A DNA stretch of 64,000 nucleotides from Escherichia coli (GTDB taxonomy: Bacteria; Pseudomonadota; Gammaproteobacteria; Enterobacterales; Enterobacteriaceae): the NCBI RefSeq assembly GCF_003334405.1, contig NZ_QOWM01000005.1; one strand, written 5' to 3'. Made by a program: the position numbers and the translations under genes. Positions 29,379-40,546 of this stretch are shown here, piece after piece (the stretch's first letter is position 1; each line of letters begins with the position of its first letter). The notes beneath the pieces are model-generated. The model searched no databases. It was not told where the DNA came from and saw only the letters and a list, made by a program, of their open reading frames with translations.

Positions 29379-30740
29379 GTGGAAAAAGAAAATATCACCA
29401 TCGATCCGCGTTCTTCATTTACTCCATCTTCGTCGGCAGATATTCCCGTGCCACCAGATGGATTAGTTCAACGCAGTACCCGAATTAAACGCATTCAAGC
29501 CACCGCCATGTTGTTATTATTTTTTGCGGCGGTAATCAATTATCTCGACCGCAGTTCGCTGTCGGTAGTAAATTTAACGATTCGTGAAGAATTGGGATTA
29601 AGTGCCACCGAAATCGGCGCTTTGCTCTCCGTGTTTTCACTCGCTTACGGGATTGCGCAACTTCCTTGCGGCCCACTATTGGATCGTAAAGGCCCACGCC
29701 TGATGCTGGGACTGGGGATGTTCTTCTGGTCACTGTTCCAGGCCATGTCTGGCATGGTGCACAGCTTTACGCAGTTCGTGTTGGTGCGTATTGGTATGGG
29801 GATTGGTGAAGCGCCGATGAACCCATGCGGTGTAAAAGTCATTAACGACTGGTTCAACATCAAAGAGCGCGGACGCCCGATGGGCTTTTTCAACGCAGCT
29901 TCTACCATTGGCGTTGCCGTAAGCCCACCGATTCTGGCGGCGATGATGCTGGTGATGGGCTGGCGCGGGATGTTTATTACCATTGGTGTACTGGGGATTT
30001 TTCTCGCCATCGGCTGGTATATGCTCTATCGCAACCGCGAGCACGTAGAACTGACTGCCGTTGAACAAGCTTATCTCAATGCAGGTAGCGTCAATGCCCG
30101 CCGAGATCCGCTCAGTTTTGCCGAATGGCGCAGCCTGTTCCGTAACCGCACAATGTGGGGAATGATGCTCGGATTCAGTGGCATCAACTACACTGCGTGG
30201 CTGTATCTGGCCTGGCTTCCTGGTTACCTGCAAACAGCCTATAACCTGGATTTAAAAAGCACAGGATTGATGGCGGCTATCCCTTTCCTGTTTGGGGCTG
30301 CCGGGATGCTGGTCAACGGTTACGTTACCGACTGGCTGGTCAAAGGGGGAATGGCTCCGATTAAAAGCCGTAAGATCTGCATTATTGCCGGGATGTTCTG
30401 TTCTGCCGCCTTTACGCTGGTCGTACCGCAAGCGACAACATCCATGACAGCGGTTCTGCTGATTGGCATGGCACTGTTTTGTATTCACTTTGCCGGAACA
30501 TCCTGCTGGGGCTTGATCCACGTCGCAGTTGCTTCTCGCATGACGGCGTCGGTGGGCAGTATCCAGAACTTTGCCAGCTTCATCTGCGCCTCTTTCGCGC
30601 CGATCATTACTGGTTTTATTGTTGATACCACCCATTCATTCCGTCTGGCACTAATCATCTGCGGTTGCGTCACTGCGGCGGGTGCACTGACGTACATCTT
30701 CCTGGTTCGTCAGCCGATCAACGCCCCACGGAAAGATTAA
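29379..30740 (+). CDS. lgoT: L-galactonate:H+ symporter (MFS)
   Basis: 453-aa 12-TM MFS ORF MEKENITIDPRSSFTPSSSADIPVPPDGLV. Confidence 0.9.
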   Translation: MEKENITIDPRSSFTPSSSADIPVPPDGLVQRSTRIKRIQATAMLLLFFAAVINYLDRSSLSVVNLTIREELGLSATEIGALLSVFSLAYGIAQLPCGPLLDRKGPRLMLGLGMFFWSLFQAMSGMVHSFTQFVLVRIGMGIGEAPMNPCGVKVINDWFNIKERGRPMGFFNAASTIGVAVSPPILAAMMLVMGWRGMFITIGVLGIFLAIGWYMLYRNREHVELTAVEQAYLNAGSVNARRDPLSFAEWRSLFRNRTMWGMMLGFSGINYTAWLYLAWLPGYLQTAYNLDLKSTGLMAAIPFLFGAAGMLVNGYVTDWLVKGGMAPIKSRKICIIAGMFCSAAFTLVVPQATTSMTAVLLIGMALFCIHFAGTSCWGLIHVAVASRMTASVGSIQNFASFICASFAPIITGFIVDTTHSFRLALIICGCVTAAGALTYIFLVRQPINAPRKD

Positions 30741-30749
30741 TCTCCCTAT

Positions 30750-30783
30750 GCCCGATAACATTTTGCTTATCGGGCATTTTTAT
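30750..30783. terminator. terminator hairpin between convergent lgoT and tsr
   Basis: gcccgataa-cattttg-cttatcgggc followed by attttta. Confidence 0.7.
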
Positions 30784-30788
30784 GGCGA

Positions 30789-32453
30789 TTAAAACGTTTC
30801 CCAGTTCTCCCCGCTATCTGCTACGGCCATTTTACGCGGCGCAGCTGGCGTCACGGTTTTTACCACAGCCGATGTTTCACGCTGATGTTGCTGCTGTTGC
30901 TGAATCCGGAACACTGCCACAGCTTCGGTCAGGCGACTGGCCTGCTCTTCCAGCGCGGCGGCGGCGGCGGCAGATTCTTCCACCAGCGCAGCGTTCTGTT
31001 GAGTTACCCGGTCCATCTCAGCGACCGCTAAGCCAACCTGATCGATACCACGGCTCTGCTCATCAGAAGCAGAAGCTATTTCGCCCATAATGTCCGTCAC
31101 GCGGGTCACAGCACTGACAATCTCCGCCATTGTTTCCCCGGCGCTTTCGACCAGCGTAGAGCCAACATCCACTTTCCCCACCGAGTCTTCAATCAGGCTT
31201 TTAATTTCACGAGCCGCCTGGGCGCTACGCTGGGCCAGATTACGCACTTCTCCCGCAACCACCGCAAAACCGCGCCCTTGCTCACCCGCACGCGCTGCTT
31301 CAACCGCCGCGTTCAAAGCCAGAATATTGGTCTGGAAGGCAATGCCGTCAATTACGCTGATAATATCGGCGATTTTCTGCGAGCTGGTGGAGATATCGCG
31401 CATAGTCTGTACTACGTTATCCACCACTTTGCCGCCACGTTGCGCCGTTTCAGAAGCACTTAACGCCAGGTGGCTGGCCTGGCGCGCATTCTCGGCGTTC
31501 TGTTTCACCGTTGCGGTCAGTTGCTCCATGCTGGCTGCCGTCTCTTCCAGCGAAGCGGCCTGTTGCTCGGTGCGCGAAGAGAGATCGTTATTGCCGGTGG
31601 CGATTTCGCTGGCACCGCTATAAATGGCATTGGCCCCGTTGCGCACATCACCGACGGTACGCATCAGCTCTCCCTGCATATGGCGCAAACTCTCTGCCAG
31701 TTGCCCCATCTCATTAGAGCCATCCACCTCAATCGGTTTCACCAGATCGCCGCCTGCAATATGACGAATGCTGTCAATCAGGCGATTCATTGGCGCTACC
31801 AGCGAGGCTTTAATACCGAACCAGACGGCGAAGATGACCGCCAGTACGACGATCATCACGCCCACCAGAATCCACATCGCCTGGCTGTAGGAGGCATTAT
31901 TATCGCTGACGGCGATATCATAGAGCCGATCGTTTTGCTCCATGTAAGCCACATACTGCTTCTCGAAACCGTCCTGATATCCCTGGGTCGGCTGATCAAA
32001 GAACTCGTTGATTTTGCCTGCACCTAACAGTTGGATCAGCTCCGCCAGCGCATTGTGATAAATATCGTAATTACGTTTGATCTCTGCCGCTGCGGCGGTG
32101 CTCTGACGCGGGTCACGCGGCAACGCTTCGTAATCCGCCCAGTTTTTTTCCGCCTGTTTCAGCGAAATACTGGCACTCTCCATCAGCTCAGCAACGGTTG
32201 AACCGCTACCAATATTATTCTGATCCATCATGTAGCGGATACCCGCGCGGTTGAGGGTGTTACGCGTCTGCAACAACGCGACCCAGCTGCCATTCAGCGT
32301 GGATTGCTGCTGGCGAATGGTTTGTAAAACAGTGAAATTTTCTTTGTCATTCTTTAAGGCATTAAAGAACAGACCGCCTGATGTCAGTTGTAAAAGGCCA
32401 AAAACGGCCAAAACCAGCAGTAAGCTGGTCACAATTTTGATACGTTTTAACAT
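30789..32453 (-). CDS. tsr: methyl-accepting chemotaxis protein I (serine chemoreceptor)
   Basis: 554-aa [24 protein letters not shown] ending NWETF pentapeptide. Confidence 0.95.
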
Positions 32454-32483
32454 GGTTTCTCTTTCCTGTGGACCGATGCAAGA

Positions 32484-32510
32484 TTTTCGGCCAGGAAAGG
32501 AAAAACTTTA
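32484..32510 (-). promoter_or_regulatory. sigma28 (FliA) class 3 promoter of tsr
   Basis: minus strand reads TAAAGTTT - 11 bp - GCCGAAAA, close to the TAAAGTTT-N11-GCCGATAA consensus, about 30 bp upstream of tsr ATG. Confidence 0.65.
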
Positions 32511-32829
32511 TGAATATCCCGCGGAGATTACGCCGAGTAATTTTATTCACACTCTGAATTTAAAAAGCCATTATTTACATAAATTACTCACAATATAAAT
32601 ATGTGATATGAATCACATATTTATCGTCACTTAAACGACGCCTTTGCCGCTCAACCGCAAAACTGACCGCTTACATCCCTAAAATAACCACTCAGTTATT
32701 TACCTTACTTTACGCGCGCGTAACTCTGGCAACATCACTACAGGATAGCGGTCAATTTACCTCCTCAAACGCAACGCAAACCTAGAACGGCTTCGGCCAA
32801 CTATTAATCAATACATGCCAGGTTTTACT

Positions 32830-34980
32830 ATGGATACTAAAAAGATATTCAAGCACATACCCTGGGTGATTCTCGGAATCATCGGTGCATTCTGCCTCGC
32901 GGTAGTTGCATTACGTCGGGGGGAGCACGTCAGCGCCCTGTGGATCGTGGTCGCCTCTGTGTCGGTGTATCTGGTGGCGTATCGCTACTACAGTCTGTAC
33001 ATCGCCCAGAAGGTGATGAAACTCGACCCCACGCGCGCGACGCCTGCGGTTATTAACAACGACGGTTTGAACTACGTTCCGACCAACCGTTACGTGTTGT
33101 TTGGTCACCACTTCGCCGCTATCGCCGGTGCTGGTCCGCTGGTGGGTCCGGTTCTCGCCGCGCAGATGGGCTACCTGCCTGGCACGCTGTGGCTGCTGGC
33201 GGGGGTCGTGCTGGCCGGTGCGGTTCAGGACTTTATGGTGCTGTTTATCTCCTCTCGCCGTAATGGCGCATCTCTTGGTGAGATGATCAAAGAAGAGATG
33301 GGACCAGTACCGGGGACTATCGCGCTGTTTGGCTGTTTCTTAATCATGATCATCATCCTCGCCGTCCTGGCGCTGATTGTGGTTAAAGCCCTGGCCGAAA
33401 GTCCGTGGGGTGTCTTCACCGTTTGCTCAACCGTACCGATTGCGCTGTTTATGGGTATCTACATGCGCTTTATTCGTCCGGGGCGTGTGGGTGAAGTCTC
33501 TGTCATTGGTATCGTGCTGCTGGTTGCCTCTATCTACTTCGGTGGCGTGATTGCTCACGATCCGTACTGGGGTCCGGCACTGACCTTTAAAGACACCACC
33601 ATTACCTTCGCGCTGATTGGCTATGCGTTTGTTTCCGCACTGCTGCCAGTGTGGCTGATCCTCGCACCGCGCGACTATCTGGCAACCTTCCTGAAAATCG
33701 GCGTTATCGTCGGCCTGGCGCTGGGTATCGTGGTGCTGAACCCGGAACTGAAAATGCCTGCCATGACCCAGTACATTGACGGTACTGGCCCGCTGTGGAA
33801 AGGCGCTCTGTTCCCGTTCCTGTTCATCACCATCGCCTGTGGTGCGGTATCTGGCTTCCACGCGCTGATCTCTTCCGGTACGACGCCAAAACTGCTGGCT
33901 AATGAAACCGACGCGCGTTTCATCGGCTACGGCGCAATGCTGATGGAGTCCTTCGTGGCGATTATGGCGCTGGTTGCTGCGTCCATCATCGAACCGGGTC
34001 TTTACTTCGCGATGAACACCCCGCCTGCTGGCCTTGGCATCACCATGCCTAACCTGCATGAAATGGGGGGCGAGAACGCGCCGATCATCATGGCGCAGCT
34101 GAAAGACGTTACCGCACACGCGGCAGCGACCGTCAGCTCCTGGGGCTTCGTGATTTCGCCAGAGCAGATCCTGCAAACCGCGAAAGACATTGGTGAGCCT
34201 TCTGTCCTGAACCGTGCAGGTGGTGCGCCGACGCTGGCGGTAGGTATCGCTCACGTGTTCCACAAAGTGCTGCCGATGGCTGACATGGGCTTCTGGTATC
34301 ACTTCGGTATTCTGTTCGAAGCACTGTTCATCCTGACCGCGCTGGATGCGGGTACCCGTTCTGGCCGCTTTATGCTGCAAGACCTGCTGGGTAACTTCAT
34401 CCCGTTCCTGAAAAAAACCGACTCTCTGGTTGCCGGTATCATCGGTACTGCGGGCTGTGTGGGTCTGTGGGGCTACCTGCTGTATCAGGGCGTGGTCGAT
34501 CCGCTGGGCGGCGTTAAGAGCCTGTGGCCGCTGTTCGGTATTTCCAACCAGATGCTGGCAGCCGTAGCGCTGGTACTGGGCACCGTTGTGCTGATTAAGA
34601 TGAAGCGCACCCAATACATCTGGGTAACTGTTGTTCCGGCTGTATGGCTGCTTATCTGCACCACCTGGGCGCTGGGCCTGAAACTGTTCAGCACCAACCC
34701 GCAGATGGAAGGCTTCTTCTACATGGCAAGCCAGTACAAAGAGAAGATTGCTAACGGTACTGACCTGACGACGCAGCAGATTGCCAACATGAACCACATC
34801 GTTGTGAACAACTACACCAACGCAGGTCTGAGTATTCTGTTCCTGATTGTGGTGTACAGCATCATCTTCTACGGTTTCAAAACCTGGCTTGCGGTGCGTA
34901 ACAGCGACAAACGTACTGACAAAGAAACACCGTACGTTCCAATCCCGGAAGGCGGCGTGAAGATCTCTTCGCACCACTAA
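32830..34980 (+). CDS. btsT: CstA-family pyruvate/H+ symporter
   Basis: 716-aa product from ATG 32830 (MDTKKIFKHIPWVILGIIGAF); track ORF starts 32815. Confidence 0.93.
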   Translation: MDTKKIFKHIPWVILGIIGAFCLAVVALRRGEHVSALWIVVASVSVYLVAYRYYSLYIAQKVMKLDPTRATPAVINNDGLNYVPTNRYVLFGHHFAAIAGAGPLVGPVLAAQMGYLPGTLWLLAGVVLAGAVQDFMVLFISSRRNGASLGEMIKEEMGPVPGTIALFGCFLIMIIILAVLALIVVKALAESPWGVFTVCSTVPIALFMGIYMRFIRPGRVGEVSVIGIVLLVASIYFGGVIAHDPYWGPALTFKDTTITFALIGYAFVSALLPVWLILAPRDYLATFLKIGVIVGLALGIVVLNPELKMPAMTQYIDGTGPLWKGALFPFLFITIACGAVSGFHALISSGTTPKLLANETDARFIGYGAMLMESFVAIMALVAASIIEPGLYFAMNTPPAGLGITMPNLHEMGGENAPIIMAQLKDVTAHAAATVSSWGFVISPEQILQTAKDIGEPSVLNRAGGAPTLAVGIAHVFHKVLPMADMGFWYHFGILFEALFILTALDAGTRSGRFMLQDLLGNFIPFLKKTDSLVAGIIGTAGCVGLWGYLLYQGVVDPLGGVKSLWPLFGISNQMLAAVALVLGTVVLIKMKRTQYIWVTVVPAVWLLICTTWALGLKLFSTNPQMEGFFYMASQYKEKIANGTDLTTQQIANMNHIVVNNYTNAGLSILFLIVVYSIIFYGFKTWLAVRNSDKRTDKETPYVPIPEGGVKISSHH

Positions 34981-39265: not shown

Positions 39266-40546
39266 ATGAATAAACTCATTGAACTCAGACGCGCCAAAAT
39301 GTTGGCGCTCTCTTTACTGCTTATCGCCGCTGCTACCTTTGTCGTTACGCTGTTTTTGCCGCCCAATTTTTGGGTGAGCGGCGTGAAGGCGATTGCTGAA
39401 GCGGCGATGGTCGGCGCGCTGGCGGACTGGTTTGCGGTGGTGGCGCTGTTTCGCCGCGTGCCGATTCCGATCATTTCTCGTCATACGGCGATTATCCCGC
39501 GTAATAAAGACCGGATTGGCGAAAATCTCGGCCAGTTCGTGCAGGAAAAATTTCTCGATACCCAGTCGCTGGTGGCATTGATTCGACGTCACGAACCGGC
39601 GTTGTTGATTGGCAACTGGTTTAGTCAGCCGGAGAACGCCCGCCGCGTTGGTCAGCATCTGTTGCAGATCATGAGCGGTTTTCTTGAACTGACCGATGAT
39701 GCGCGTATTCAGCGCCTGCTTAAGCGCGCGGTCCATCGGGCGATTGATAAGGTCGATCTTTCCGGCACCAGTGCGTTGATGCTGGAGAGTATGACCAAAA
39801 ACAATCGTCATCAGGTGCTGCTGGATACGCTGATCGCACAGTTGATCGCCCTTCTCCAGCGCGATAAATCGCGCAAGTTTATTGCCCAGCAAATTGTTCG
39901 CTGGCTGGAGAGCGAGCATCCGCTGAAAGCCAAAATTTTGCCTACTGAATGGCTGGGCGAACATAGCGCGGAGTTGGTTTCTGACGCGGTGAATTCTTTG
40001 CTTGATGATATCAGCCGCGATCGTGCGCATCAGATCCGCCATGCATTTGATCGCGCCACCTTTGCCCTGATCGACAAGTTGAAAAACGATCCGGAAATGG
40101 CAGCGCGAGCCGATGCCGTAAAAAGTTATCTGAAAGAAGATGAAGCTTTTAACCGCTATCTCAGTGAATTGTGGGGGGATTTACGGGAATGGCTGAAAGC
40201 GGATATCAACAGTGAAGATTCTCGTGTGAAAGAACGTATCGCGCGGGCGGGTCAATGGTTTGGCGAAACGTTAATTGCCGATGATGCCTTGCGGGCATCG
40301 TTAAATGGTCACCTGGAACAAGCCGCGCACCGCGTCGCGCCTGAGTTTTCCGCATTCCTGACGCGCCACATCAGCGATACAGTAAAAAGCTGGGATGCTC
40401 GGGATATGTCGCGGCAAATCGAGTTAAATATCGGCAAAGATCTGCAGTTTATCCGTGTCAACGGTACGCTGGTTGGCGGTTGTATTGGGCTAATTTTATA
40501 TTTGTTGTCGCAGCTCCCGGCCTTGTTCCCCCTCAGCAATTTTTAG
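39266..40546 (+). CDS. yjiN: DUF445-family inner membrane protein YjiN
   Basis: 426-aa [34 protein letters not shown]. Confidence 0.85.

Follow-up and report, generated by a model that had tools for sequence, protein, structure and literature searches.

The gene for the serine chemoreceptor Tsr, in the 64 kb stretch of Escherichia coli DNA analyzed here (the window, taken at its full length), is preceded on the minus strand by a sequence that is almost certainly a class 3 (late) flagellar promoter, read by FliA (σ28) RNA polymerase. The motif is real and is the already documented FliA (σ28) promoter of E. coli tsr: the assignment is correct and has been published for K-12, and only the comparative evidence that we add in its support is new. 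The features found are those of a class 3 σ28 promoter, namely a −35 match, an 11-bp spacer, a composite −10 element, the matching strand and placement, and conservation among relatives.

Results

The tsr coding sequence occupies positions 30789..32453 on the minus strand and encodes a serine chemoreceptor (MCP-I) of 554 amino acids; E. coli records of identical sequence annotate this open reading frame as tsr and give it the same start codon. Many complete E. coli chromosomes match the region at 100% identity. Their annotation lists the genes in the order lgoT, tsr, btsT, with btsT beginning at 32830 on the strand opposite to tsr. The length of 554 amino acids is shared by most RefSeq E. coli, whereas 551 amino acids are annotated in K-12 MG1655 (1656 nt); the difference appears to be located in a glutamine-rich stretch near the C-terminus (QQQQHQRE here). 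In E. coli PCN061 (NZ_CP006636.1), an IS1A element lies inside the stretch matching window positions 32300–32900 (601 nt), and this match overlaps an open reading frame annotated as 'Tar ligand binding domain-containing protein', which suggests an insertion disrupting tsr or the tsr promoter.

Upstream of tsr, the minus strand reads ...ggatattcaTAAAGTTTttcctttcctgGCCGAAAAtcttgcatcggtccacaggaaagagaaaccATG. The −35 element, TAAAGTTT, lies at 32510..32503 and agrees with the σ28 consensus at 8/8 positions. It is followed by an 11-nt spacer (ttcctttcctg, 32502..32492), whose length is kept among relatives but whose sequence is not, and by the −10 element, GCCGAAAA (32491..32484), which agrees with GCCGATAA at 7/8 positions. 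The latter is composed of an extended −10 GC (32491–32490), a CGA core and, at 32486, a non-consensus A; it ends 30 nt before the tsr ATG (32453..32451, minus strand). The initial annotation had placed the two elements at 32503–32510 and 32484–32491 with 11 bp between them, and motif, spacing and coordinates are borne out exactly on the minus strand. Measured against the σ28 consensus TAAAGTTT-n11-GCCGATAA (Koo 2009, as quoted in PMC2859248), the tsr site retains 15 of the 16 specified bases, and its sole mismatch, T→A, is at 32486, base six of the −10 octamer.

When at most one mismatch was allowed, the tsr site was the sole match on both strands of the window, and no match was obtained in 100 dinucleotide-preserving shuffles; by our own arithmetic, about 1.5e-3 matches are expected per window at this threshold. 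With up to three mismatches, the tsr site was again the only match in the window. Chance alone gives about 0.66 matches at that level, so what matters is how close the match is.

For comparison with relatives, tsr orthologues were gathered using a degenerate pattern for the first nine codons, without the promoter as a criterion, and E. coli loci from the complete-genome set were added. The sample thus comprised 22 tsr loci beside the window: four further E. coli, one other Escherichia species, two Salmonella enterica subspecies, nine Citrobacter, two Pseudocitrobacter and four Kluyvera. A Pelosinus match, a chance hit of the pattern in a 15-codon open reading frame, was left out of the sample. 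The best σ28 match scored 15/16 with an 11-nt spacer in 22/22 loci; in every one of them, the −35 element was TAAAGTTT and the −10 element was GCCGA[A/C]AA, ending 28–32 nt before the ATG. The invariant columns of the alignment were TAAAGTTTT, GCCGA, AA and the purine-rich ribosome-binding block, while the loci differed in the flank upstream, in spacer sequence and in the initial portion of the untranslated region (UTR). Judging from this alignment, the pattern of conservation is the expected footprint of a two-block sigma-factor site with fixed spacing. The tsr frame itself breaks after about 30 codons in Citrobacter koseri NCTC10786 and Kluyvera genomosp. 3 YDC799, by frameshift or assembly error; the upstream σ28 promoter is intact in both.

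Within E. coli, the sequence beyond the promoter falls into three unrelated contexts, which cover 5187 of the 5197 genomes having any match. The btsT-adjacent form, to which the window and K-12 belong, was found in 2757 genomes; a form that has hpaR, the end of the hpa (4-hydroxyphenylacetate) cluster, beside tsr was found in 2071; and a form with a hypothetical 180-codon open reading frame, as in O157:H7, was found in 359. The homology shared by the three contexts starts just 2–4 nt upstream of the −35 element. Since homology stops at about 32514, no UP element, activator site or σ70 promoter farther upstream could serve as conserved control of tsr, and by this comparison a conserved upstream σ70 promoter or activator site for tsr is ruled out. 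The tsr promoter, unchanged beside three different neighbors and in five genera, illustrates what would be a self-contained, sufficient cassette of about 60 bp. The flank of the hpaR-adjacent form, CACCTTTTCATAAAG, resembles the Pseudocitrobacter flank, CACCTTTTCTTAAAG, a likeness that hints that the hpa-adjacent arrangement may be older than the others.

The transcription start is predicted at 32476–32478 on the minus strand, 6–8 nt downstream of the −10 element, which gives a 5′ UTR of about 23–25 nt. Hollands et al. placed a CRP site 132.5 bp upstream of the K-12 tsr promoter (PMC2859248), and mapping this figure onto the sequence points to a start at C 32478; from the CRP site to the promoter, K-12 is one base longer than the window. 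The numbering of Pseudomonas aeruginosa fliC, in which the −10 octamer spans −15..−8 (PMC12784957), leads to 32476 when applied here. No mapped 5′ end for tsr or for the expected coordinates was found in the supplements of Cho 2014, the ROSE paper and Cappable-seq. Between the start and the ATG, sequence and alignment identify a purine-rich ribosome-binding region, AGGAAAGAGAAA, at 32456..32467 on the minus strand. The GGAAAGAGAAA block is near-invariant in the five genera, whereas the stretch of UTR that separates it from the −10 element is variable.

The tsr promoter of K-12 shares with the window the locus, the gene, both octamers, the 11-nt spacing and the 30 nt that separate the −10 element from the ATG. 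Across the 28-mer, a single spacer base differs (A in K-12, T at 32493 here), and the window lacks 1 nt relative to K-12 at a site outside the promoter, about 40 nt before the −35 element. FliA ChIP-seq in K-12 showed a peak 94-fold above threshold, centred on TAAAGTTTTTCCTTTCCAGGCCGAAAAT upstream of tsr (Fitzgerald et al. 2014, PMC4183435, Table 2), and in the same study the normalised tsr RNA-seq signal fell significantly from 630 in the wild type to 9 in the fliA deletion (PMC4183435). Microarray data agree in direction, with tsr changing −5.4× in a fliA mutant and +3.1× upon FliA induction (Zhao et al. 2007, PMC1935009). In vitro, reconstituted σ28 holoenzyme alone selected the yjiY(btsT)–tsr spacer in genomic SELEX (Shimada et al. 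2017, PMC5493296). Furthermore, tsr is not among the FlhDC-bound sites of K-12 (n = 11), and the absence of such a site at tsr leaves control by FliA only, that is, class 3 (late). The placement of tsr in the late flagellar class, as proposed in the initial annotation, is therefore supported by FliA binding, fliA-dependence and the lack of an FlhDC site in K-12; FliA-independence and a transcript start elsewhere, which that annotation had set as the opposing outcomes, are contradicted by the K-12 expression data. From the near-identical K-12 allele, we infer that tsr would depend on FliA in the window strain as well. The signal remaining in the fliA deletion (9 of 630) may leave room for a trace of FliA-independent transcription.

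The promoter of tar-tap-cheRBYZ (meche), a canonical class 3 operon headed by a chemoreceptor gene, has the same TAAAGTTT - 11 nt - GCCGATAA-type architecture as that of tsr and is bound by FliA at the motif TAAAGTTTCCCCCCTCCTTGCCGATAAC (PMC4183435). The two differ in that the tar −10 element is full consensus, with T as its sixth base, whereas tsr has A, or C in most Citrobacter; moreover, tar is the first gene of an operon, whereas tsr is a single gene located far from the flagellar regions. In this last respect tsr resembles aer and trg, which are likewise unlinked, σ28-dependent chemoreceptor/aerotaxis genes with a fragment that CRP binds in vitro (PMC2859248). However, the elements of aer and trg are poorer (aer, TAAAGATA-n11-GCCGACAT) and need CRP at −49.5, whereas those of tsr are near-consensus (PMC2859248).

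Several other sites were observed around the locus. In the 48-bp gap between the convergent genes tsr and lgoT, a hairpin, ATGCCCGATAA-gcaaaatg-TTATCGGGCAT (30748–30777), carries a T-run on its plus-strand side. The plus strand at 30732–30759 reads AAAGATTAATCTCCCTATGCCCGATAAC, one SNP away from the weak 'tsr/yjiZ convergent' FliA ChIP site, 3-fold above threshold (Fitzgerald 2014, PMC4183435). Part of the terminator stem, CCGATAA, thus also serves as a poor σ28 −10 element. At 40427–40454 on the minus strand, GGATAAACTGCAGATCTTTGCCGATATT corresponds, with one SNP, to a weak intragenic FliA site in K-12 yjiN. The distance from this site to the tsr promoter is about 7.9 kb here versus about 25.5 kb in K-12, from which it follows that the strain is without about 17.6 kb present in K-12 between tsr and yjiN; the missing DNA is presumably the variable mcr/hsd/mrr region. 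Upstream of btsT, the plus strand carries a direct repeat, GCCGCTCA - 13 nt - ACCGCTTA, at 32646–32674. We take the repeat GCCGCTCA/ACCGCTTA to resemble the LytTR-type binding repeat of BtsR (YehT) in the yjiY/btsT promoter.

Discussion

The tsr promoter could in principle be something other than a σ28 promoter acting alone. If an upstream σ70 promoter, such as TTTATA-18-AATAAT at 32599..32570, drove a substantial share of tsr transcription, the σ28 motif would be secondary. We consider this very improbable. The tsr strand does hold one 9/12 hexamer pair and a few 8/12 pairs, and the small remainder of tsr RNA in the K-12 fliA deletion (9 versus 630, PMC4183435) could be read in the same sense. 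However, no TTGACA-(16–18 nt)-TATAAT better than chance was found upstream of tsr; the best was the 9/12 site at 32599..32570, a looser scan of the tsr strand added three 8/12 sites, and the number of σ70-like sites was at shuffle level (2 found versus 1.1 ± 1.1). These counts agree with the initial annotation, which had seen no comparable σ70 promoter in the interval. All of the σ70-like sites lie in the non-conserved part: about 47% of E. coli genomes carry unrelated DNA in place of the sequence beyond about 32514, and this sequence is not conserved in the other genera either, which places any such σ70 promoter outside the conserved control of tsr. In K-12, moreover, deletion of fliA removes more than 98% of the tsr RNA (PMC4183435). 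The sites at 32599..32570 (9/12) and 32566..32540 (8/12) may still act as minor promoters in btsT-adjacent strains.

Less probable still is a σ28 promoter that needs CRP as a co-activator in the manner of aer and trg, through the perfect CRP palindrome TGTGAttcataTCACA at 32602–32617 in the btsT–tsr spacer. The consensus TGTGA-n6-TCACA is present there, and tight binding of CRP to the tsr fragment was seen in vitro, but the authors of that work reported no detectable effect of CRP on tsr expression (PMC2859248). The activating site lies at −49.5 in aer and trg, compared with 132.5 bp upstream in K-12 tsr and about 131.5 bp in the window; near −49.5 of tsr no CRP site was found, the only one being the palindrome, about 131–132 bp upstream of the predicted start. 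The hpaR-adjacent and O157-type genomes (about 47% of E. coli) lack the palindrome upstream of tsr. It faces the divergently transcribed btsT and is more plausibly a site of the btsT promoter. An Rfam 'Pistol' match over the palindrome (scan of 30500–33000, E ≤ 1) was rejected as a chance hit, with 20.4 bits against a gathering threshold of 34.5 and E = 0.91. As for the motif being a chance match without promoter function, its probability is negligible: at three mismatches such a match is expected in 64 kb (mean 0.66), but the real match has one mismatch, a level reached in 0/100 shuffles. In addition, the motif precedes a chemotaxis gene by 30 nt in the right orientation, does not vary among five genera, and in K-12 binds FliA both in vivo and in vitro (PMC4183435, PMC5493296).

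For the promoter read by FliA, the mechanism would be as follows. FliA–RNA polymerase would recognize TAAAGTTT at −35 and, 11 bp further on, the composite −10 element GCCGAAAA. By analogy with solved σ28 complexes (PMC12784957), region 4 would read TAAAG of the −35 element, whereas the A at −11 would be flipped by regions 2 and 3, which would also recognize the extended −10 GC together with the G at −12. Initiation near 32477 would then yield a tsr mRNA that is monocistronic and has about 24 nt of 5′ UTR, and neither an upstream activator nor a σ70 promoter would be needed. FlgM keeps FliA inactive until the hook–basal body is completed. Through this hold on FliA, tsr would be co-expressed with flagellin, motor proteins and the other chemotaxis genes.

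One position of the −10 octamer, its sixth, deserves separate comment. In none of the 22 loci from five genera is the base equivalent to 32486 the consensus T, although the position has switched between A and C: A is found in E. coli, Salmonella, Kluyvera, Pseudocitrobacter, C. koseri and C. sedlakii, and C in the other Citrobacter and in Escherichia sp. E1V33. In the numbering of the σ28 structure, which places the octamer at −15 to −8 (PMC12784957), the tsr mismatch falls at −10, outside the named contacts, and this fits the strong ChIP signal. It is conceivable, though rather unlikely, that selection, rather than accidental tolerance, holds a non-T base at this position and so keeps tsr below maximal σ28 strength; the sample of 22 loci is small. 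If this were true, the sub-consensus base could serve to adjust the ratio of Tsr to Tar receptors or to time tsr expression within class 3.

Past the correct annotation of the promoter, the finding carries little significance; what it means for this strain is that the textbook wiring is kept, in which completion of the flagellar basal body precedes any synthesis of the serine receptor.
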